This document shows, piece after piece, positions 6,575 to 63,710 of a stretch of DNA of 64,000 bases. The stretch is from Flavobacteriales bacterium. GTDB lineage: Bacteria > Bacteroidota > Bacteroidia > Flavobacteriales_F > PHOS-HE28. How positions within the stretch are numbered: position 1 is the first letter of the stretch; every line of letters begins with the position of its first letter. The translations under genes and the position numbers were made by a program. A model generated the notes under the pieces. It was not told where the DNA came from. It made no database searches and saw only the letters and a list, made by a program, of their open reading frames with translations. The stretch spans positions 701,031 through 765,030 of the forward strand of contig JADJVC010000002.1 in the NCBI GenBank assembly GCA_016710685.1, written 5' to 3'.

Positions 6575-6580
6575 TTTGCG

Positions 6581-6700
6581 AATTCCTAATTGCTGATCGC
6601 TGATTGCTAATTCCTAATTGCTGATTCCTAATTCCTAATTCCGGGATGCAGCTTCGGCAGCCGGGATCAGGATTTAGGAATTGGCAATCAACTCAGATAC
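6581..6700. repeat. Intergenic palindromic element with arms made of AATTCCT/TAATTGCTGAT units. Bidirectional terminator-like, between convergent genes.
   Basis: ttgcgaattcctaattgctgatcgctgattgctaattcctaattgctgattcctaattcctaattccggg …center… ccgggatcaggatttaggaattggcaatcaa. The arms are reverse complements. Confidence 0.55.
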
Positions 6701-23005: not shown

Positions 23006-23167
23006 AGGTCTAGGACGCTGAGACGCAGAGGCGCGGAGCAGTTCATTTCATAGCTTCGGGCGTTGCTTGAAGTTCGTCATTGTACCGTTCGTGCAGTGTT
23101 TATTCTTCTTCTCCGCGCCACCGCGCCTATGCGTCCAAAAACCTTGCCCGTCGAAAATCCTCTCCCC

Positions 23168-23787
23168 ATGAAAGTCATCTGCATCGGTCGCAACTACGCC
23201 GACCACGCCAAGGAACTCGGAAATGACGTGCCCTCCGAGCCCATGTTCTTCCTGAAGCCCTCCACGGCGTGCCTCTTTGCCGGACAGCCCATCCGGATGT
23301 CCTCCATCCCGGGCGAAATTGCCTACGAACTTGAGCTGGTAGTGGCCATTGATGGCTATGCCACCAACGTGCCTGCAAGCATGGCATTGGGCATGGTTTC
23401 CCACTACACGTTGGGCTTGGACCTCACTGCGCGTACCCTGCAGAACGAACTGAAGGCAAATGGTCATCCTTGGGAAAAAGCCAAAGCATGGGGCGGCAGC
23501 GCGGTGCTCGGCGACGTGGAACTACCCTTGACCTCCAGCACGGATCTGCAAGCCATGGCCATCGAGCTAAAGAAAAACGGCGAAACCGTGCAGAAGGACA
23601 GCACCGCGAACATGTTGTTCAAGGTACAGGACCTCATTGCGCATGTGTCGCGCTACATCACGCTGGAGCCGGGCGACCTTCTTTCACGGGAACGCCAGCG
23701 GGTGTGGGGCCCATTGCGGAGGGTGATGTGCTCGAAGGATTCCTCAACGGAAAGCGCTTGCTGCAAGCAACCGTTGGGAAACGGTAG
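23168..23787 (+). CDS. Fumarylacetoacetate hydrolase (FAH) family protein. The C-terminus is reached only through a 1-nt frameshift.
   Basis: Start MKVICIGRNYADHAKELG. The conserved tail …FTGTPAGVGPIAEGDVLEGFLNGKRLL is in the frame of ORF 23470..23787. The shift is at the ttt run 23682..23684 (expected cttcttttcacg). The track ORF 23063..23863 reads through into nonsense. Confidence 0.65.
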
Positions 23788-23887
23788 ATTTGCATCCTTG
23801 CGGAACGGTGTTCCGTTGTTCGTTGTCGGGCATTGCCCAGGTCGTTACAGCACATTTTTCTGATCAGCGTTTCATCACAAGCCCAGC

Positions 23888-24736
23888 ATGACCAAGCACG
23901 TAAAAGTCGGCAACATCGATTGCGGCGCCGATCAGTTGTTCCTCATCTCCGGTCCCTGCGTTATCGAAGACGAGAGCATCATGATGCGCACTGCGGAGAA
24001 GCTCCGCGAGGTGAGCGAGCGCACCAAGGTGCCTATGATCTACAAGAGCAGTTTCATGAAGGACAACCGCAGCAGCGTGGAGTTCTACATGGGCCCCGGC
24101 CTCGATGAAGGTTTGAAGGTGCTGGAGAAAGTGAAGAAGGAATTCGGTTTCCCACTGCTCACGGACATTCACTATCCCTCGCAGGTAAAAGCTGCGGCCG
24201 AGGTTTGTGACGTACTCCAGATCCCTGCTTACCTGTGTATGCAGACCACGCTGGTCACCGAGGCCGCGAAGACCGGTGCCGTGATCAACCTGAAGCACGG
24301 CCAGTTCCTTGCACCGGACAACATGGTAAAGCCGGTGAAGAAGATCGAGAGCGTCGGCAACGAAAAGATCATCCTCACTGAGCGCGGCTTCGTGCTGGGC
24401 TACAACGACCTTGTGGTGGATCCGCGTGCCTTCTACCACCTGCGCCAAGCGGGCTATCCCGTAGTGTTCGACATTACGCACAGCATCCGCAAATACGGCA
24501 TTCCCAGTGCTGATCCGCGCGGCGGAAACCGCGAATTCCTGCCCACCATTGCGCGCGCCGGCGTAGCAGCAGGCGTGGACGGCGTATTCATTGAAACACA
24601 CCCTGACCCCAGCACCGCCCTCTGCGATGCCGCCAGTCAGCTTTGCGTTTACGACCTCGAAGAATTCCTGAAGCCGCTGCTCGACCTGCACGCGGTGGAA
24701 GTGCAATACCGAGAGGAAGTAGCCTTGAGTAAATGA
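23888..24736 (+). CDS. kdsA: 3-deoxy-8-phosphooctulonate (KDO8P) synthase
   Basis: 282 aa. Collinear with KdsA (FLISGPCVIE…GFPLLTDIH…PAYLC…GVDGVFIETHPDP). Confidence 0.92.
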   Translation: MTKHVKVGNIDCGADQLFLISGPCVIEDESIMMRTAEKLREVSERTKVPMIYKSSFMKDNRSSVEFYMGPGLDEGLKVLEKVKKEFGFPLLTDIHYPSQVKAAAEVCDVLQIPAYLCMQTTLVTEAAKTGAVINLKHGQFLAPDNMVKPVKKIESVGNEKIILTERGFVLGYNDLVVDPRAFYHLRQAGYPVVFDITHSIRKYGIPSADPRGGNREFLPTIARAGVAAGVDGVFIETHPDPSTALCDAASQLCVYDLEEFLKPLLDLHAVEVQYREEVALSK

Positions 24737-24782
24737 GCGCAGATCAGTTCTGTCCCATGTCCGATATCTCATGCGCGCACCT

Positions 24783-24826
24783 GACATAAGACATAAGACA
24801 ACAGACATAGGACATCAGACATCAGA
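24783..24826. repeat. Heptanucleotide tandem repeat (GACATMA) x6 in the kdsA-fsa intergenic region
   Basis: gacataa gacataa gacaaca gacatag gacatca gacatca. Confidence 0.6.
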
Positions 24827-24898
24827 CCCAAAACAAATTCTTCAACCAACCCCGCATTTCATAGCGCTCGTAGCGTTCTTTGCGGTAGAAACTTCACC

Positions 24899-25609
24899 AT
24901 GGAACTTTACCTCGACAGTGCCGACATCAAAGAGATCGACGAAGCCTTCAAGCTCGGCTTTCTAACCGGTCTTACCACCACGCCAACTTTCATGCACCGG
25001 GGCGGGGTTACGAACATCGACAAGATGATCTTGGACCTTGCCAAGAAGGTGCCAATCCTGCAAGTAGAAGCCTTGGGCGAGACTGCCGAAGATGTGGTAA
25101 AGGAGGCCAAGCGCCAACTGAAGATGGGCCTCAAGAAAGAGACCACCGTCTTCAAGATCCCTGTTAGCCTTGAAGGCCTGCGCGCCTGTAAAATGCTGCG
25201 CGATCAAGGCATCATGGTGAACGTTCACCTCGTTTACACGCTGCAACAGGCGTACATGGCGATGCAAGCCGGTGCCAACTACGTGTGTCCGCTTGTGGGC
25301 CGCTTACAGGACCAAGGCCACGATGCGCTTAGTCTCGTGCGCCAATGCGTAGAAGCCGTGAACTACTACGGCTACAACAGCAAGGTCATGTTCAGCAGCG
25401 TGCGTACCGTGGAGCATGTGCGCAACGCGGTGGAGATCGGCGTACACACCATCACCGTGCCTTGGAAGCTGATGAAACAGCTCACCGACAACCACTTCAC
25501 CGCGATCGGTACGCAACAGTTCTATGAGGACACGCGGTTGATCGCCCATGAAGGTGAAGGACGTGCTATCGCGCAGCAATCCCATCGTGAAGGAGACCGC
25601 AACAGTTAG
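24899..25609 (+). CDS. Fructose-6-phosphate aldolase / transaldolase-fold protein (TalC/FSA subfamily)
   Basis: N-terminus MELYLDSADIKEI is near-identical to the E. coli FSA start (MELYLDTSDV). About 220 aa TIM-barrel aldolase. The 3' end overlaps the next gene by about 60 nt. Confidence 0.8.
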   Translation: MELYLDSADIKEIDEAFKLGFLTGLTTTPTFMHRGGVTNIDKMILDLAKKVPILQVEALGETAEDVVKEAKRQLKMGLKKETTVFKIPVSLEGLRACKMLRDQGIMVNVHLVYTLQQAYMAMQAGANYVCPLVGRLQDQGHDALSLVRQCVEAVNYYGYNSKVMFSSVRTVEHVRNAVEIGVHTITVPWKLMKQLTDNHFTAIGTQQFYEDTRLIAHEGEGRAIAQQSHREGDRNS

Positions 25610-25922
25610 CGAAGCGCTTGTGGAAATGACCAAGCACGGCTTCGGCGCTGTGATGGTGGTAGACGCGAAAGGGAAGAACTTGGGCGTCTTCACCGATGGT
25701 GGCTTGCGACGCGGCATTGAAAAGGAAGGCAACAAATTCCTTGCGAAGAAGCTCAGCGCGTTAAAGTTCAACGCACCGTTCACCGTGGCTCCGGAAGCAT
25801 TGCTCGATGAGGCCAAAAAACTGTTCAAGGAACACAAGGTGGACACCCTCAGCGTGAGCGAGAATGGCAAGCAGCTCGGCATGTTGGACATTCAGGACAT
25901 GATGAAGGCCGTGGCTGGGTGA
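25548..25922 (+). CDS. Standalone CBS-pair domain protein
   Basis: 124 aa with two CBS motifs (MKVKDVLSRSNPIVKETATVSEALVEM…VMVVDAKGKNLGVFTDGGLRR and …KKLFKEHKVDTLSVSENGKQLGMLDIQDMM). Confidence 0.7.
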   Translation: MKVKDVLSRSNPIVKETATVSEALVEMTKHGFGAVMVVDAKGKNLGVFTDGGLRRGIEKEGNKFLAKKLSALKFNAPFTVAPEALLDEAKKLFKEHKVDTLSVSENGKQLGMLDIQDMMKAVAG

Positions 25923-25926
25923 AAAA

Positions 25927-26103
25927 GTTGTCAGTTGTCGGTTGTCAGGTGCTGCCGAGAGCTTTGTCATTCTGGAAGGAGGAACGACGAAGCAGTCTTT
26001 ACTTGAAAAATGACCAAGGGAGTTTGGCTAAAGATCGCTTCGTCGTTCCTCCTCGCGAACCGGAGATGGGCAGCCTGACAACTGACAACCAACAACTGAC
26101 AAC
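25927..26103. repeat. Nested inverted-repeat element. Outer arms are built from GTTGTCA heptamers. Inside is a perfect 16-bp stem with a 43-nt loop.
   Basis: Outer arms gttgtcagttgtcggttgtcaggtgctgcc (25927..25956) and ggcagcctgacaactgacaaccaacaactgacaac (26069..26103). Inner stem ggaggaacgacgaagc (25978..25993) pairs with gcttcgtcgttcctcc (26037..26052). Ends 12 nt before the kdsC-like start. Confidence 0.6.
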
Positions 26104-26114
26104 TAAACCCTGAA

Positions 26115-26768
26115 ATGCACGAGACCCGCTACTTGCACGCACAAGAGGAACTACAACGCCGAGCAAAGCAGATCAAAGCCGTCCTCTTTGACTGGGACGG
26201 AGTCTTCAACGACGGCTGGAAGGATTTTGAGAACGGCAGTCCATTCAGCGAGGTGGGCAGCATGGGCGTGAACATGTTGCGGTTCGCGTTGTGGCTGCGG
26301 AACGGCGTGAATCCCCCGGCCGCAGTGGTCACTGGGCAGATCAATCCGCATGCCGAAAAATTTGTGCAGCGGGAGAAATTCCATGGCATCTACATGGGCT
26401 TTATCAACAAGCCCGATGCATTCGCCGAGTTCTTGAAGAAGCACGGGCTAAAGGCCGAAGAGGTAGCTTTTTTCTTCGACGATGCTATCGACCTTGCTTT
26501 GGCCAAACAGTGCGGCTTGCGTGTAATGATCGGGCGGAAAGCCGGCATGCGCTTCACCGAGCATGTGATCGCACGTGGCGATGCGGACATCGTAACGGCA
26601 AACAGCGCTGGCGAAAATGGTCTTCGCGAAGCCACCGAAGCTGTGATCGAGCTGCTCGGAAATTTCGCGGACGTGTTCGACCAGCGTGCGGCATATACCG
26701 AGGATTATCAACGGTATTTGAAGGAGCGCAACGCGACAGAACCCGCTGTGGAACGCGGGAAGCGCTGA
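26115..26768 (+). CDS. HAD-superfamily phosphatase, KdsC-like (putative KDO8P phosphatase) with a C-terminal extension
   Basis: HAD motif I AVLFDWDGVFNDG. Motif III/IV region FFFDDAIDLALAKQCG. About 40 aa extra at the C-terminus. Sits next to kdsA. Confidence 0.55.
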   Translation: MHETRYLHAQEELQRRAKQIKAVLFDWDGVFNDGWKDFENGSPFSEVGSMGVNMLRFALWLRNGVNPPAAVVTGQINPHAEKFVQREKFHGIYMGFINKPDAFAEFLKKHGLKAEEVAFFFDDAIDLALAKQCGLRVMIGRKAGMRFTEHVIARGDADIVTANSAGENGLREATEAVIELLGNFADVFDQRAAYTEDYQRYLKERNATEPAVERGKR

Positions 26769-38930: not shown

Positions 38931-39004
38931 CGGTCCGGACGGGACTCGAACCCGCGACCTCCGCCGTGACAGGGCGGCATTCTAACCAGCTGAACTACCG
39001 AACC
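38931..39004 (-). tRNA. tRNA-Asp (anticodon GTC)
   Basis: Complement reads GGTTCGGTAGTTCAGCTGGTTAGAATGCCGCCCTGTCACGGCGGAGGTCGCGGGTTCGAGTCCCGTCCGGACCG. D-loop AGCTGGTTAGA. Anticodon loop CTGTCAC. T-loop GGTTCGAGTCC. 7-bp acceptor stem. Confidence 0.85.
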
Positions 39005-39150
39005 GTTTTGCTTCAACTTTCGCCGAAGCGGCTGCAAATGTAATCCGTTCGGTGGATCCCGCAAGCTGTGGTTTTTCGGAAGCTGGAAAATGAAGTGGCA
39101 CGAGTGCGCTACATCAGCCTGAGTCCCCCGTCTACCCTGACAACTGACAA

Positions 39151-40080
39151 CTAATACAGTCGGCTCCGCTTAATCAAAAATTGCAACAGCACATTTTCAA
39201 ACCCCGCATTGATGTCCGCCTCCACCAGCTCAATGCGGTATTGGCCGCATTTCAACTTCAGCTCGTGCCAAAAGGCGTTCATGGCGGTTTTGTAGGCGGT
39301 GCGCACTTCGGCGGCGTGGGCCTTCACTTGTTCGCCGCTTTCCAGGTCCACGAAGGTGTACGGGCGGTCTTCCAAAGCGAGTTCCAGCTCGTGCTTGCGG
39401 TCCACCACGTGGAAGAGGATCACATCATGCTTGTTGTAGCGCAGGTGCTGCATGGCGTCGAAAAGCTCCTCACGGCGGGCGCTGTTGTCCATCATGTCGC
39501 TGAAGAGCACCACGAGCGAGCGGCGGTGGGTGCGGCGGGCAATGTCGTGCAGGGCTTCCACCGCGCTGGTGCCTTGCTCGCGTGCGGGTGCTTCAGTGCT
39601 TAGCAGGCCGTCCAACTGGGCCATGAGGTGGCGCAGGTGTACGGCATTGCTGCGGGCCTGTTCCGTAAGCAGCACGTGGTCGGAGAAAACAGTGAGCCCC
39701 ACGGCATCGCGCTGTTTGCGCAGCAGCGCTATCAACGCAGCGCTGGCGTAGGTGGCGAATTCAATTTTATTGAACTGCTTCGGTGCTTTTTCCGAAGTGG
39801 CCGGGTAGTACATGCTGCTGCTGGCATCGATCACCAATTGGCAACGCAGGTTCGTTTCTTCCTCGTAGCGTTTCACGAACAGCTTGTCGGTGCGCGCGAA
39901 GAGCTTCCAATCAATATGGCGCGTGCTTTCGCCGGGATTGTAAGCGCGGTGCTCCGCAAATTCCACACTGAAGCCATGGAACGGGCTTTTGTGCAGGCCG
40001 GCAAGAAATCCTTCCACCACTTGGCGGGCATGGAATTCCAACTGGCTAAGGGCTTGAATATGGTGTTGGTCTATCGGCAT
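39151..40080 (-). CDS. DUF58 (vWA-fold) protein, solitary
   Basis: 309 aa. GESTRHIDWKLFARTDKLFVKRYEEE and LVIDASSSM (MIDAS-like) are typical of DUF58 proteins that normally pair with MoxR ATPases. No MoxR gene nearby. Confidence 0.75.
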   Translation of the reverse strand: MPIDQHHIQALSQLEFHARQVVEGFLAGLHKSPFHGFSVEFAEHRAYNPGESTRHIDWKLFARTDKLFVKRYEEETNLRCQLVIDASSSMYYPATSEKAPKQFNKIEFATYASAALIALLRKQRDAVGLTVFSDHVLLTEQARSNAVHLRHLMAQLDGLLSTEAPAREQGTSAVEALHDIARRTHRRSLVVLFSDMMDNSARREELFDAMQHLRYNKHDVILFHVVDRKHELELALEDRPYTFVDLESGEQVKAHAAEVRTAYKTAMNAFWHELKLKCGQYRIELVEADINAGFENVLLQFLIKRSRLY

Positions 40081-40108
40081 CGAAGGGGCAAAGGTCGGGT
40101 ATGTGGTT

Positions 40109-40186
40109 GAAGCTGCAAGCCTTTAGCCACAAGCCACAAGCTTGGTCGAGCTTGTGGCTTGAAGCTTGCAACTTGGGGCTTGAACA
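40109..40186. repeat. Intergenic palindrome built from CCACAAG/AAGCTTG units
   Basis: gccacaagccacaagcttgg-tcga-gcttgtggcttgaagcttgcaacttgg, between DUF58 (-) and a small ORF (+). Confidence 0.5.
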
Positions 40187-42067: not shown

Positions 42068-42197
42068 GTCAGTTGTCCGTTGTTAGTTGTCAGTTCTCAG
42101 GCGTTGCAGCGCCAAGGCGCTCTGGTGGCAGCGTACATTGCATCGTCCCGTCGGGGCGGCATTTAGTGCAGCCTGACAACTAACAACTGAAAACTAA
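42068..42197. repeat. Long inverted repeat with GTTGTCA-heptamer arms between convergent genes. The right arm overlaps the uvrA stop.
   Basis: gtcagttgtccgttgttagttgtcagtt (42068..42095) …GC-rich core… cctgacaactaacaactgaaaactaac (42171..42197). Confidence 0.6.
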
Positions 42198-45154
42198 CCA
42201 AGAACCGCTTTCAAATAATGCGCGGTATGGCCAATGCCACTGGCCACCAACCCGTCCGGAGTGCCTTCAAATACGATAGAACCACCGGCATCACCGGCTT
42301 CGGGACCAAGGTCGAGCAGGTGGTCCGCGCAGGTGATCACTTCCAAGTTGTGTTCGATCACCAGCACGCTGTGGCCATTGTCTATCAAGGCGTTCAGGGC
42401 TTTCAGCAACTTGGCGATGTCATGGAAATGCAGGCCCGTGGTTGGTTCGTCGAAGATGAAAAGCGTGGGCTTTTCATCGCTGCCTTTTATTAGGAATGAA
42501 GCCAGCTTGATACGTTGCGCTTCGCCGCCGGAAAGCGTGCTGCTGCTTTGGCCAAGCTTCACATAGCCTAAGCCGGTTTCCTGCAAGGGCAGCAGCTTGT
42601 CCGCGATGCGCTTTACGGCGTTGTGCTTTTCCTTGTGCTGGTTGAAGAAGAGCAGGGCATCATCCACCGTCATGTCCAGCAGGTCCGCAACGTCCTTGCC
42701 TTGGAATTTCACTTCCAAAATTTCTTCCTTGAAGCGTGTTCCGTGGCAGACTTCGCAGACCAAATTGATGTCCGCCATGAACTGCATTTCGATATGCACT
42801 TCGCCTTCGCCTTGGCACACTTCGCAGCGTCCGCCGTCCACGTTGAAGCTGAAGTATGCGGGCCTGTAACCGCGCATCTTGGCGGCTTCTTGCTCGCTGT
42901 ACAATTGGCGGATGTCGTCCCACGCTTTCACGTAAGTCACAGGATTGCTGCGCGAAGAACGGCCGATAGGATTTTGGTCGATCATCTCCACGGCTTTTAT
43001 GCGGTGCAGATCGCCGGTAAGTTCCTTGAATTCGCCGGGCCGTTCGCCACCGCCGCCTTCCAGCTCGCGGCGCAGGGCAGGGTAGAGGATGCGCTTAACC
43101 AACGTGGTTTTACCGCTGCCGCTTACGCCGGTCACCACGGTCAGCATGTGCAGCGGGAAAGCCGCGTCGATGTTTTTCAAATTGTTCTCGCAAGCGCCCT
43201 TTACGTTAATGCGGTCGCGCACCGGGCGGCGGCGGTCAGGTCGTTTGATCTGCTCGCGGCCGGTGAGGTACTTGGCCGTGAGGCTGTCGCTCTCCATCAA
43301 CTGGTCGTGCGTTCCGCTGAACACCACTTCGCCGCCGTGCGTGCCTGCTTCCGGGCCCATGTCGATGATGTGGTCCGCAGCGCGCATCACCTCTTCATCG
43401 TGCTCCACCACGATCACGGTATTGCCGAGATCACGCAGTTGCTTCAACACTTCGATCAAGCGGTGCGTATCGCGCGGATGCAGGCCAATGCTGGGTTCGT
43501 CCAGAATGTACATGCTGCCCACCAAGCTGCTGCCGAGCGAGGTGGCCAAGTCGATGCGTTGCGTTTCGCCTCCGCTGAGCGTGTTGCTACGGCGGTCCAA
43601 GGTCAAGTAACCCACGCCCACTTCGTCGAGATAGCGCAAGCGATTGGTGATCTCTTTCACTAAGCGTTCGGCCACCTTGGCATCGTTGCCGGGCAACTTC
43701 AGCGCTTTGAAAAACGCCAAGCATTTGGTGATGGGCAGGCGTGCCAGCTCGGTGATGTCCGTGCCCGCCACCTTTACATGCAGCGCTTCCGGACGCAGGC
43801 GCGAGCCGTGGCACAGTGTGCAGGTGGTTTTTCCGCGGTAGCGGCTGGCCAACACACGGTATTGGATCTTGTAGCTCTTTTGCTCACAGTACTGGAAGAA
43901 GGCATCGATGCCGTGCAGGCCGCGCGTGCCATTCCACAACAACCGCCGCTGTGCCTCGGAAAGTTCGCGGTATGGGCGGTGGATCGGGAAGTCACGATCG
44001 CCGAGGTCGCGGATGAAATCGCGTTTCCATTCGCTCAGTTTTTCGCCGCGCCATGGAGCAACGCAATCGTCGTAAAGCGAAAGCGATTTGTCGGGGATCA
44101 CCAAGTCGGGGTCCACGCCAAGAATGCTGCCGTGGCCTTCGCAACGCGGGCAAGCACCCACGGGATCGTTGAAGCTGAAAAGCTTGGGACTGGGTTCCTC
44201 GAAGGTGATACCGTCCAGTTCGAAACGGTCGCTGAACCGCATTTCCTTCGGCTTTCCCTTGGCGTCCGTGCCCAACAGCACGCAGGCGCCTTGGCCCTCG
44301 AAGAACGCGGCTTCGGCACTGTCTGCGATGCGGCCCTCCGATTCGTCTTCGCCAGAGAGCACGGTAATGCGGTCCAACACGATGCTCCACGGTCCGTCGC
44401 TGAGGTTTTTCGCGATCAACAGGTCTTCAATCCGCACAACATCACTGCCATCGTGAACGCGCGCAAAGCCTTGCTGTTGCAGCACGTCCAAGTGTTCGCG
44501 CAAGCTGCGACCTTCAGGCAAATGCACCGGCGCCATTAATAGCACGGTGCTGTCCTTCGGGAAGGAGTTTGCGCCCGCCACCACGTCTTCTATGGTGTCA
44601 CGCTTCACTTCGCGGCCACTTTCGGGGCTGAAGGTGTGGCCCGCGCGGGCGAAGAGCAGTTTGAGGTGGTCGTACACTTCGGTGCTGGTACCCACGGTGC
44701 TGCGCGGGTTGCTCGTCATCACCTTCTGTTCAATGGCAATGGCAGGGCTGATGCCGGTAATGCGGTCCACATCGGGCTTTTCCAAGCGGCCCAGAAACTG
44801 GCGCGCGTAGCTGCTAAGGCTCACCACGTAGCGGCGTTGGCCCTCAGCATAGAGCGTATCGAAGGCCAACGAGCTTTTGCCGCTTCCGCTAAGGCCGGTG
44901 ATCACCACCAGTTTGCCGCGCGGAATGTTCACCGTGATGTTCTTCAGGTTGTGGACGCGCGCGCCCTGCACGCTGATAAAGGCTTGTTTGATCACAGGCT
45001 TGGGGACGGAAGCCAGGTCCGGCACAGCGGCTTTGGGCTGCGGCGGTGCCTTGGCCTTCTTTTCTTGGGAACGGGAATGGGGTCGGGGCTTTTCACGGGG
45101 CCGCGAATTTACGGAGCATGGTCCAGTATCGAAGAGATCCCGTATATTTGGCAT
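42194..45154 (-). CDS. uvrA: Excinuclease ABC subunit A, with a basic/Pro-rich extension of about 55 aa before the first ABC module
   Basis: Two ABC ATPase modules, two zinc fingers (CPRCEGHG…, CEVCQGEGE…). The conserved core starts at …[13 protein letters not shown]. The track ORF extends further to 45214. Confidence 0.93.
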
Positions 45155-63580: not shown

Positions 63581-63710
63581 GTTGTCGGTTGTCGGTCGGC
63601 AGCGGCAGTAGCAGTAGGCAGTGGCAGTGGCATTAGGCTGTGGCAGTAGGCAGTTGGCAGCGGCAGCCGTCTAATCGCCAGTCACCATCAACCGACCACC
63701 AAGTCCTTAC
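63581..63710. repeat. Hexamer/heptamer tandem repeats (GGCAGT/GGCAGC x~10, GTTGTCG x2) in the region upstream of the E1 gene
   Basis: gttgtcggttgtcggtcggcagcggcagtagcagtaggcagtggcagtggcattaggctgtggcagtaggcagttggcagcggcagcc. Confidence 0.55.

Follow-up and report, generated by a model that had tools for sequence, protein, structure and literature searches.

In the window, that is, the whole 64,000-nucleotide stretch of DNA that was analysed, a long palindromic element lies in the spacer between two plus-strand genes. The upstream gene (24899..25922) encodes a TAL_FSA + CBS fusion, which has 340 aa in other strains; in the window, a 1-nt insertion (an extra C at 25545) splits it. What the first-pass annotation had called a CBS gene is the C-terminal portion of this fusion. 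The downstream gene (26115..26768) encodes a HAD-like phosphatase of 217 aa, annotated in the sources as KDO 8-P phosphatase or as phosphatase, for which no Pfam match was obtained. The left outer arm of the element begins 4 nt past the TGA stop of the fusion gene, and the last heptamer of the right arm ends at 26103, with 11 nt between it and the ATG at 26115, in agreement with the earlier description of an element of about 177 nt ending just before the KdsC-like start codon. Upstream of kdsA, TAGATTTG (23785..23792, plus strand) matches the Bacteroidetes -7 promoter consensus TAnnTTTG. Every orthologous locus keeps this match, and no other box of the kind lies between there and the HAD gene.

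The hairpin in this spacer is made of two unrelated palindromic repeat families, one nested in the centre of the other. The left arm of the outer element holds three to four GTTGTCA units, with three heptads at 25927..25947 (GTTGTCA GTTGTCG GTTGTCA), and its right arm holds four TGACAAC units at 26076..26103 (TGACAAC TGACAAC CAACAAC TGACAAC). Two remnants of the outer interior follow inwards: on the left GGTGCTGCCGAGAGCTT (25948..25964), which on comparison by eye resembles the 'strong block' GGCTGCCGACGCTTTGCC of the orthologous copies, and on the right GGAGATGGGCAGCC (26063..26075), which ends in the GGCAGCC junction of the outer family. The inner element, a degenerate REP-doublet, occupies 25965..26062, with a TGTC tag at 25965-25968, two cores at 25978-25993 and 26037-26052, and extended arms at 25977-26001 and 26029-26053 on either side of a spacer or loop (26002..26028). 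The cores correspond to the perfect 16-bp inverted repeat that had been noticed previously (GGAGGAACGACGAAGC, plus strand in the first core and minus strand in the second, with 43 nt between them). This repeat extends to 25 nt at 92% over the extended arms, and no further copy of the 16-mer was found in the 64 kb with up to 2 mismatches allowed (0.03 expected by chance). The outer inverted arms of GTTGTCA heptamers were also recovered as described, over 26 nt (25926-25951 / 26079-26104), as arms of GTTGTCA and TGACAAC units that are 92% complementary to each other.

The region 25927-26103 folds as one hairpin of about 85 bp. Its RNA fold reaches -95.2 kcal/mol, vs -52 +/- 4.3 for shuffled sequences (z = -10.1; 0 of 200 shuffles as stable), and its DNA fold -51 kcal/mol (z = -8.5). 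The concentricity of the inner and outer palindromes was considered as a sign of insertion targeted to the hairpin tip; since the centre falls at 26015 or at 26011.5 depending on the heptamer register chosen, it is weak evidence for such targeting. The loop at 26002..26028 also holds a chance ATG opening the frame ...IASSFLLA..., which is the usual spurious peptide of the inner repeat. In L003 and L004, gene callers placed ORFs of 64-101 aa across the element; the ORFs called across the hairpin in some assemblies are spurious.

Neither a TAnnTTTG box nor a sigma-70-like promoter was found in 25700-26300. No terminator-like site was detected either (0 sites); the hairpin is followed by TAAACCCTGAAATG, with no U tract. 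A terminator was rejected on this ground, together with the lack of a 3'-end preference among the outer-family members and of a promoter box proper to the downstream gene. An invertible promoter in the interior was also discarded, no Bacteroidetes or sigma-70 motif being present there on either strand. Rfam searches with the whole window (gathering threshold), with the element (E<=10) and with 8 inner-family loci returned only a tRNA and chance miRNA-like matches. In the relatives that have no element at this place, the spacer is 12-14 nt long, which implies co-transcription, and the only conserved box is the one upstream of kdsA; the element is therefore probably transcribed inside the kdsA operon.

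By sequence comparison, the inner element, including the perfect 16-mer, can be assigned, as a degenerate copy, to a REP-doublet family that spans several phyla, (C/T)GTCATTGCGAG...GATTGCTTCGTCGTTCCTCCTCGCAATGAC, also written (C/T)GTCATTGCGAG...CTCGCAATGAC, with the unit CGTCATTGCGAG. Members of this family occur in Bacteroidota-rich metagenomes, on cyanobacterial plasmids and in alphaproteobacteria, with full-length copies in Methylosinus and Novosphingobium and a 30-nt core that is 100% identical in plasmids of Calothrix and Aulosira. The extended consensus is present in 94 of the 127 16-mer matches listed from metagenome contigs, both figures being lower bounds, and at least 50 full doublets of 69-139 nt were collected, tagged with CGTC (30) or TGTC (20). 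An HMM built from the 50 full doublets matches positions 25961-26059 of the window (E=6.6e-10 on the plus strand and 1e-7 on the minus strand; model positions 8-82 of 84), with the caveat that its seeds were gathered with the window's own 16-mer and that, once both 16-mers are masked, the flanks are not significant alone. The window copy matches 24 of the 25 bases of GATTGCTTCGTCGTTCCTCCTCGC and has a start-to-start spacing of its cores of 59 nt, as in L138. Its left tag is kept as TGTC; its right end has decayed (TCGCgAAc...), reading TCGCGAACCGG vs TCGCAATGACA, and has lost the tag.

At this locus the inner copy is present only in the window species and is absent in every other species examined. 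A search of the 64-kb window and of about 210 kb from related loci of the clade gave no second copy. GTTGTCA arrays are rare around inner copies (3 in 735 kb), and an association of the two families was rejected. A transposase or RAYT partner was found for neither family in this small sample; the transposase near one Calothrix plasmid copy is an IS1595 zinc-ribbon fragment.

The outer family was found in Hymenobacter, Cytophagales and Flavobacteriales, and the 16-nt arm pattern matches at least 119 genome stretches. In its canonical form, TA is followed by GTTGTCA GTTGNNN GTTGTCA GTTGTCA and GG, then by the interior, and then by CC, TGACAAC TGACAAC NNNCAAC TGACAAC and TA, the ends being TAGTTGTCAG...CTGACAACTA. 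In about 1.1 Mb of DNA of retrieved loci, 47-51 pairs of left and right arms were surveyed. Four units per arm were counted on each side in 28 of 47 elements. The second unit from the outside is the variable one, with GTTGTCA in 9 of 56 arms vs 30, 39 and 36 for the other units, and its variants in the left and right arms of the same element covary (16 mismatches vs 33 +/- 3.8 with shuffled partners, p < 1e-4). The polarity GTTGTCA...TGACAAC was observed in 49 pairs vs 2 reversed, and in 11 vs 0 among the pairs not seeded by the search pattern. TA flanks the left end in 18 and the right end in 16 of 47 elements, and as TA is itself palindromic it continues the palindrome; the window copy has AA before its first GTTG and TA after its last CAAC. 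The 28-mer of the window's right arm is identical in Hymenobacter saemangeumensis (L023), H. rigui (L071) and a Cytophagales MAG (L057). Moreover, a neighbouring heptamer array differs between strains by exactly 7 nt.

In the outer family, conservation of the interior is limited to the clade, and an interior-only HMM retrieved a second locus, L008, from the same MAG as L128 (E=1.4e-5). No target-site duplication could be demonstrated among 47 elements, and the retrieved loci, a tiny sample, hold no clean pair of left and right ends 1-3 kb apart around a transposase-sized ORF. Members lie between divergent genes in 5 cases and between convergent genes in 3.

The window itself contains 12 matches to the arm pattern, vs 0.45 expected, and the arms of the same type that had been reported elsewhere in it are present. 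A second full copy, with arms of 4 and 3 heptads, fills the gap between two convergent genes at 42068..42198; its interior of 74 nt has the same length as in the orthologs of the first copy, and the two window copies are alike in arms and size and not in interior sequence. A solo right-type arm, CCTGACAACTGACAACTA, abuts the 3' end of a minus-strand ORF at 39137..39155, beside a tRNA gene (38931-39004), and a short GTTGTCG array at 63581..63596 is followed by a GGCAGT-type tandem array (63598-63666). Other heptamer-armed hairpins of the window are built from the unrelated units AATTCCT, GACATAA and AGCCACA.

The outer element occupies the same TAL/CBS-HAD spacer in 8 lineages (window, L131, L127, L128, L133, L129, L134 and L258), across about 28% divergence of the HAD protein. 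It is missing in L130 and in L132, the latter about 92% identical to L127, and the alignments break exactly at an indel of 119 nt. Because of the tree, this indel is more parsimoniously read as a deletion. L127 and L128 have interiors that align with those of the other lineages when reverse-complemented (for example, 71.5 vs 33 for L131-L127), and since these two lineages are not sisters, the interior must have been inverted at least 2 times. In keeping with a flip, the marked arm unit GTTCTTG/GTTCTTC lies to the left of the interior in L131 and to its right in L127. The right arm ends 4 nt before the ATG in L127, L128, L131 and L133, and 11 nt before it in the window; the distance from hairpin to start codon is 4-12 nt in most orthologs. 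When 7 orthologs were folded, every minimum-free-energy structure had the outer arms paired; in L133 (z = -0.7) and L129 (z = -0.3) the stability of the fold is no longer significant. Within the species, the window and 7 contigs from different samples have an identical element in one orientation. This 100% identity over 8 contigs was not retained as a sign of conservation: the window and L001, although different strains, have the same sequence all the way from 25546 to about 27000, and an identical element within that tract is therefore uninformative. The first-pass annotation had weighed the case of a single-copy feature fully conserved in relatives. Such a feature does not correspond to what we found: each part belongs to a family with many members, close relatives differ in whether they carry the outer part, and no other species examined has the inner part at this locus.

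Several known systems resemble one or the other part. CGTC-tagged REPs occur as head-to-head dimers with 8-9-bp stems and 4-5-nt loops, and no dedicated transposase is reported for them (Di Nocera, De Gregorio & Rocco 2013, PMC3733652). REPIN doublets are another close known system for the inner element (Bertels & Rainey 2011, PMC3116915). Like the CGTC REPs, the inner family has a terminal CGTC or TGTC tag, a unit stem starting with AT (ATTGC...GCAAT), a CCA-type tail (GCAATCCAG) in some copies and an intergenic location, in alphaproteobacteria, Bacteroidota and cyanobacteria; like them and like REPINs, it consists of two inverted units, here with a 10-77-nt spacer. Unlike the units of the published CGTC families, its unit, ATTGC-(10-16 nt)-GCAAT, forms only 5 canonical pairs, with loops of 10-16 nt. 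On account of this 5-pair stem, we file it as REP-like and CGTC-tagged; its stem and loop lengths would set it apart from the four published CGTC families. The window copy differs further from the CGTC REPs by the loss of its right tag and by having no other copy in the sampled part of the genome.

For the outer arms, the nearest relatives are tandem heptamers. TAACTGA direct repeats are found in Beggiatoaceae, cyanobacteria and some Bacteroidetes, with one inverted repeat among 170 sets (MacGregor 2015, PMC4679880). A search of the literature for the exact arm and core sequences returned only a Nostoc hyp-operon paper with (TTGTCAG)n, plus unrelated primer matches; (TTGTCAG)n is a 44-copy repeat in Nostoc PCC 7120 (PMC2408588). 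As in the TAACTGA and STRR repeats, the outer arms are intergenic tandem heptamers in the same phyla, their unit being one base from TAACTGA; like TAACTGA repeats, they have a forward array ending a few nt before a start codon and indels in 7-nt steps. They differ from the TAACTGA repeats in their inverted pairs, fixed polarity, preferred number of four heptads, variable second unit and partly conserved interior. Moreover, their unit is CAACTGA (equivalent to TGACAAC) and not TAACTGA, and units of the TAACTGA type are confined to minor variants (CAACTAA in the arm at 42173). The STRR heptamers of cyanobacteria were reportedly described by Mazel and co-workers in 1990.

Correia and Nezha MITEs are dispersed, inserted beside or between cistrons and co-transcribed as long hairpins. 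Both the Neisseria Correia elements and the cyanobacterial Nezha are named as MITEs in PMC3733652. The outer element shares with them this dispersal and placement, probably the co-transcription as a long hairpin, a total size of 100-180 nt, terminal inverted repeats of about 26-30 nt, frequent flanking TA and a presence that varies among relatives; unlike them, it has tandem-heptamer ends and an interior not conserved across genera, and neither target-site duplication nor transposase was found for it. Invertons, invertible promoters between inverted repeats, are said to have been reported in Bacteroidota by Jiang and co-workers in 2019. The outer element, too, is a segment bounded by inverted repeats that is found in both orientations among lineages, but it lacks a promoter motif, no invertase was found for it and orientations are not mixed within the species.

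Taken together, we favor, with a probability of about 0.7, the notion that the feature is a selfish or neutral nested palindromic repeat with, at most, a modulating influence on expression of the gene downstream. The outer element would have entered the TAL/CBS-HAD spacer of the kdsA operon in an ancestor of this Flavobacteriales clade. Its later evolution may have involved slippage in 7-nt steps, decay of the interior, recombination between the arms that inverted the interior, and occasional deletion. The inner doublet, REPIN-like and CGTC/TGTC-tagged, would have reached the outer interior in a single lineage, that of the window species. Given an operon promoter upstream of kdsA and neither promoter nor terminator in the element, we infer transcription within a polycistronic mRNA, where the element should form a very stable stem-loop from -12 to about -190 of the HAD gene. 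Most likely, neither part serves this locus as a dedicated regulator, and any effect is a by-product. By analogy with REP/BIME and Correia elements, such an effect would consist in protection or processing of the upstream message and in damped translation of the downstream cistron. Among the three options put forward in the first-pass annotation, a MITE-like insertion comes closest, although it is incomplete in that two nested families, and not one element, are involved.

The other two options were an attenuator or long 5'-UTR structure and an operator, and a locus-specific attenuator, riboswitch-like leader or operator of the KdsC-like gene now appears largely refuted and scarcely credible. 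It would account for a very stable structure directly upstream of a start codon. Nevertheless, no U-tract terminator, promoter-like motif or Rfam match was found, both halves belong to dispersed families, the outer half is dispensable (it is absent from two relatives) and the inner one is absent from all of them, and the interior is unconserved and flipped between species. Moreover, the upstream gene ends 4 nt before the hairpin, and there is therefore no separate leader. We also regard as very improbable an invertible phase-variable switch, in which recombination between the arms would flip the interior and turn HAD expression on or off. At least two flips in the clade and the marked unit that changes sides between L131 and L127 are what such a switch would produce, but they are explained without any function by rare homologous recombination between inverted repeats of 26-28 bp, and the interior is poorly conserved, without a promoter motif on either strand and in a single orientation in 8 of 8 contigs of the window species.

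Against the favored reading, the same 28-nt arm persists in different orders of Bacteroidota and the outer element has been retained at this locus, which could point to selection on the arms, for instance as a binding site, instead of neutrality. A selected intercistronic stem-loop of the REP/BIME type, setting the ratio of TAL/CBS to HAD expression through a block to 3'-5' exonucleases, through processing by RNase III or by masking the site of ribosome loading downstream, is unlikely in our opinion. It is consistent with the pairing of the outer arms in 7 of 7 folded orthologs, with the persistence of the element in the spacer through deep divergence, with its position inside an operon that has a single upstream promoter box and with the short distance from hairpin to start codon. 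The covariation of the arms would fit as well, yet it is equally expected from concerted evolution of a palindrome. The loss of stability in L133 and L129, the loss of the element without replacement in L132 and L130, and family members as often between divergent as between convergent genes argue against a selected stem-loop. Alternatively, the heptad arrays might be binding sites for a sequence-specific RNA- or DNA-binding protein, in a network like that proposed for TAACTGA, the palindrome arising because the array has to be oriented in a fixed way for each flanking gene. This is a distinctly improbable reading, for which no binding protein is known or was found. CAACTGA is one base from the TAACTGA repeats, which lie 'forward' just upstream of start codons (PMC4679880), and the right arm is likewise forward and ends 4-12 nt before the HAD ATG; the identical 28-mer in distant Bacteroidota and the fixed architecture of four heptads are also in line with it. 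The strict polarity equally fits a transposon with defined ends, and the window hairpins with unrelated heptamers are better explained by a generating process than by one recognition code. A broader proposal can be made, which we hold to be quite unlikely: far from being junk, heptamer-armed palindromes would form a functional class that is conserved in Bacteroidota and may extend to Planctomycetota and Acidobacteriota. Their 28-bp arm of four heptads, one of them an 'address' unit, would be read by a putative heptad-recognising protein or nuclease, the fixed GUUGUCA...UGACAAC polarity would mark gene boundaries in the mRNA, and the interior could be flipped. If true, it would give a first mechanistic handle on the STRR and TAACTGA heptamer repeats.

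For the locus itself, the preferred reading of a selfish or neutral repeat disposes of a misleading clue: the striking hairpin that precedes the KdsC-like gene is made of repeat DNA and does not serve as a dedicated regulator. The element would be ordinary bacterial 'junk' or mobile DNA, of unusual architecture. Tandem heptamers such as STRR and TAACTGA have been catalogued for decades and remain unexplained; here they occur in an organised form, as inverted pairs of four heptads with a covarying second unit, a strict polarity and an interior that decays, flips and is sometimes deleted. The defined ends predict a transposase or a binding protein, and the flipping of the interior predicts arm-to-arm recombination; cultivable Hymenobacter species with many copies are suited to testing such predictions. 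As for the inner family, its 30-nt core is identical between Bacteroidota-type metagenome contigs and cyanobacterial plasmids, and some REP-like sequences are thus far more widely spread than the patchy literature suggests.

The feature at 25927-26103, between the TAL_FSA+CBS gene (24899-25922) and the KdsC-like HAD gene (26115-26768), consists of two repeat elements, one nested in the other. Arms of 26 nt made of GTTGTCA/TGACAAC heptamers (25926-25951 and 26079-26104; 92% complementary) bound the outer element, and the inner one is built on a perfect inverted repeat, the 16-mer GGAGGAACGACGAAGC (25978-25993) with its reverse complement at 26037-26052, which can be extended to 25 nt at 92%. 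The whole starts 4 nt past the upstream stop codon and ends 11 nt ahead of the ATG at 26115. As RNA, the region folds into a single long hairpin (-95.2 kcal/mol against -52 +/- 4.3 for shuffles, z = -10.1), and as single-stranded DNA it reaches -51 kcal/mol (z = -8.5). No further copy of the 16-mer exists within the window, even with two mismatches allowed (0.03 expected), and other arms of the GTTGTCA type lie at 42068-42198, 39137-39155 and 63581-63596. The 16-mer pair, the heptamer outer arms and the same-type arms elsewhere are all present as the first-pass annotation described them; its interpretation is supported in part, since the feature is repeat or mobile-type DNA, one of the options it offered, but it had proposed a single element and we found two nested families instead.

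When the 16-mer was scanned against metagenome contigs, at least 120 stretches matched, nearly all with a much longer consensus, (C/T)GTCATTGCGAG-(variable)-GCAATC-(spacer)-GATTGCTTCGTCGTTCCTCCTCGCAATGAC(G/A), and they were not mere repeats of the window locus. Among the matches listed, the right-hand stem is present in 94 of 127 core matches, and the doublets are tagged CGTC (30) or TGTC (20); at least 50 doublets are complete (69-139 nt, mode 78 nt). The outer tags covary, CGTC pairing with GACG and TGTC with GACA, each half is able to fold alone (ATTGC...GCAAT), and the spacer ends are complementary despite differing in sequence from copy to copy (3.5 nt vs 0.7 nt shuffled). In the metagenome contigs L135-L254 and in L255 and L256, such complementary ends (for example TCGTAGC...GCTACGA or CAACCTGA...TCAGGTTG) are usual, not universal. 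The 30-nt core is identical between phyla, with 100% identity in Calothrix and Aulosira plasmids and 96.7% in Trichormus and Tolypothrix, and Methylosinus and Novosphingobium carry full-length copies of about 78-79% identity. The family has no Rfam match and its sequence was not found in the searchable literature. The window copy, at about 25965-26062, is matched by the family HMM on either strand (E = 6.6e-10 and 1e-7). The match depends on the doublet geometry and the pair of cores, since nothing significant is left once the cores are masked. Its outer stems are eroded, reading GTCATTctggaaGG at the left and TCGCgAAc at the right.

The inner element belongs to a known kind of repeat. The CGTC-tagged REP superfamily is reported mostly from alphaproteobacteria and also from Bacteroidetes, without a dedicated transposase, and the inner family is like this superfamily and its head-to-head dimers in tags, inverted doublets and phyla (PMC3733652). 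Unit geometry differs, however, the inner family having a 5-bp stem and a 10-16-nt loop whereas the published CGTC families have 8-9 bp and 4-5 nt (PMC3733652), and we therefore call it REP-like and not a member of a published family.

A scan of CCTGACAACTRACAAC against one genome per species matched at least 119 stretches. Many of the matches listed in Hymenobacter (at least 12 species) and in Cytophagales and Flavobacteriales MAGs, and a few in Planctomycetota, Acidobacteriota and Chloroflexi, share the architecture of the outer family: GTTGTCA units form the left arm, TGACAAC units the right one, and between them lies a variable interior of 3-162 nt. Over 47 elements, exactly four heptads make up 28 left and 28 right arms (both arms in 17), and TA adjoins the left end in 18 and the right end in 16. 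The second unit from the outside is the variable one, being GTTGTCA in 9 of 56 arms vs 30, 39 and 36 for units 1, 3 and 4; it fits its own partner arm far more closely than it fits arms taken from other elements (16 mismatches vs 33 +/- 3.8, p < 1e-4). The window right arm, TGACAAC TGACAAC CAACAAC TGACAAC, exactly matches copies in H. saemangeumensis, H. rigui and a Cytophagales MAG. The order GTTGTCA...TGACAAC was seen 49 times and the reverse twice, each time adjoining a normal pair; in pairs outside the seeding by the search pattern the count was 11 to 0. Because an inverted repeat is identical on either strand, this polarity is intrinsic to the element, and an element with defined ends is the simplest explanation of the near-invariant arm order. 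By a crude open-frame test, the genes around family members are co-directional in 14 cases, divergent in 5 and convergent in 3, and gene 3' ends are not favoured. The outer element is an organised, palindromic variant of known heptamer repeats, of which no description was found in the searchable literature.

At the kdsA locus the outer element is old and dispensable, and slippage, decay, inversion and deletion all shape its evolution. It occupies the same spacer in the window and in the orthologous loci L131 (the closest other species), L127, L128, L133, L129, L134 and L258, with HAD identity to the window protein from 88% down to 72%; L259 (66%) has two GGTTGAA units only. It is missing in L130 and also in L132. 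Between L132 and its sister L127 the flanks are about 92% identical, and the two BLAST alignments end precisely at a 119-nt indel; given the tree, the absence from L132 is most simply a deletion. The interiors are homologous among orthologs (71-74 nt in most), with a well-kept block, GTCGCGGCAAGGCGTCGGCAGCC, adjoining one arm. In L127 and L128 the entire interior is reverse-complemented relative to L131, L129, L134 and L133 (alignment score for L131-L127, 71.5 flipped vs 33 unflipped; for L131-L129, 68.5 unflipped vs 40 flipped), and since these two are non-sister lineages, at least two inversions took place. Moreover, a marked arm unit, GTTCTTG/GTTCTTC, is in the left arm in L131 and in the right arm in L127, the pattern expected if recombination takes place in the outer part of the arms. 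With an HMM restricted to the interior, one more locus was found, L008, which lies on a different contig of the MAG that holds L128 (E = 1.4e-5), so that the family of this clade has a conserved interior besides conserved arms. At L008 1977-2227 an extra left arm precedes the copy and the left interior is partly duplicated, GTTGTCAGGAC...CGGT being present twice, likely through tandem partial duplication or a nested copy.

By contrast, the arrival of the inner element was lineage-specific: it is present in all 8 window-species contigs and missing from the orthologous outer element in every other species, L131 included, and it is still flanked by about 30 nt that belonged to the outer interior. 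A search of the window and of about 210 kb of related loci found no second copy. Around inner-family copies elsewhere GTTGTCA arrays are rare, with 3 in 735 kb, compared with 12 in the 210 kb from the clade; hence the two families are independent of each other and their nesting is a one-off. No general association of the doublets with GTTGTCA arrays was seen; in L160, L163, L244 and L122 (4610-4700), REP-like doublets abut other heptamer arrays (CAACTGA/CAACTAA, GGCTNAT, CATAACT, ATGAGGA). The element is 100% identical in the 8 contigs, which is uninformative because it sits in a 1.5-kb tract (25546 to about 27000) identical to L001, with 2-10% divergence on either side. This mosaic suggests a recent recombination spanning the TAL/CBS 3' end, the element and the HAD gene.

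The source is an uncultured Flavobacteriales bacterium frequent in wastewater-type metagenomes. All relatives examined keep the gene order FAA-hydrolase, kdsA, TAL_FSA+CBS fusion and 217-aa HAD-like phosphatase, the last annotated in sources as KDO-8-P phosphatase. All orthologs carry, upstream of kdsA, a sequence that matches the Bacteroidetes -7 promoter box (TAGATTTG, 23785-23792 in the window); none was found in or close to the element, and the TAL/CBS-to-HAD spacing is only 12-14 nt in two relatives. Scans for sigma-70 promoters and terminators over 25700-26300 gave zero sites. From these observations, the HAD gene would be read from the kdsA promoter through the element. No known RNA motif was found inside the element. 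The locus-specific regulator that the first-pass annotation had also offered is very unlikely, as the feature consists of nested repeat families without promoter, terminator or known RNA motif, and its outer part is dispensable.

The element might nevertheless act at the RNA level. Carried within the kdsA-TAL/CBS-HAD mRNA, it would form a very stable stem-loop leaving the HAD start codon free and burying the stretch from -12 to about -190. If it acts as REP/BIME and Correia elements do, such a stem-loop could make the upstream message more stable or subject it to processing, and could lower HAD translation. The decayed hairpins of L133 (z = -0.7) and L129 (z = -0.3) and the losses in L132 and L130 argue against strong selection on structure. 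That the arms themselves are functional keeps a low probability, since their 28-nt sequence recurs in different orders of Bacteroidota and is similar to the TAACTGA repeats found close to start codons (MacGregor 2015, PMC4679880).

Some further observations concern the same locus. An extra C at 25545 (GCCC vs ACC) splits the TAL_FSA+CBS gene into two overlapping frames, and an intact 340-aa ORF is present in L001, L002 and L004-L007; the frameshift is either real in the window strain or an assembly error. The KDO cluster (23888-26768; orthologs L127-L134, L258, L259) sets kdsA and the KdsC-like phosphatase beside a transaldolase/FSA-family domain fused to CBS domains, and this fusion keeps its place throughout the clade. 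The usual partner in KDO clusters is the SIS+CBS arabinose-5-phosphate isomerase KdsD, and the fusion may be a non-orthologous route to arabinose-5-phosphate. ORFs of 101 aa (L003 4694-4999) and 64 aa (L004 4805-4999), called over the element in other assemblies of the window species, are almost certainly not real genes; a recurrent '...IASSFLLA...' string is what the inner repeat encodes.

Other repeats occur in the window. In the kdsA-TAL spacer (24755-24830), a second heptamer-armed hairpin has (NNATGTC)n as its left arm and (GACATAA)n as its right arm; strains differ by exactly one 7-nt unit (the window having one GACATAA fewer than L001, L003 and L007), which shows slippage in action, and the window strain has several left-arm substitutions. 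Hairpins with period-7 arms of unrelated units also occur at 6576-6690, exactly filling the gap between two convergent ORFs, and at 40106-40185 (AATTCCT/TTGCTAA and AGCCACA/AGCTTGA types, respectively). Heptamer-periodic palindromes are thus general in this genome and not tied to a single unit. Finally, an inverted repeat at 23013-23136, based on GACGCAGAGGCGCGGAG / CTCCGCGCC...GCGTC, is found also in the L128 and L133 spacers, with similar CCTCTGCG(T/C)CTCCGCG strings in other spacers of related genomes, and looks like a third dispersed repeat family.
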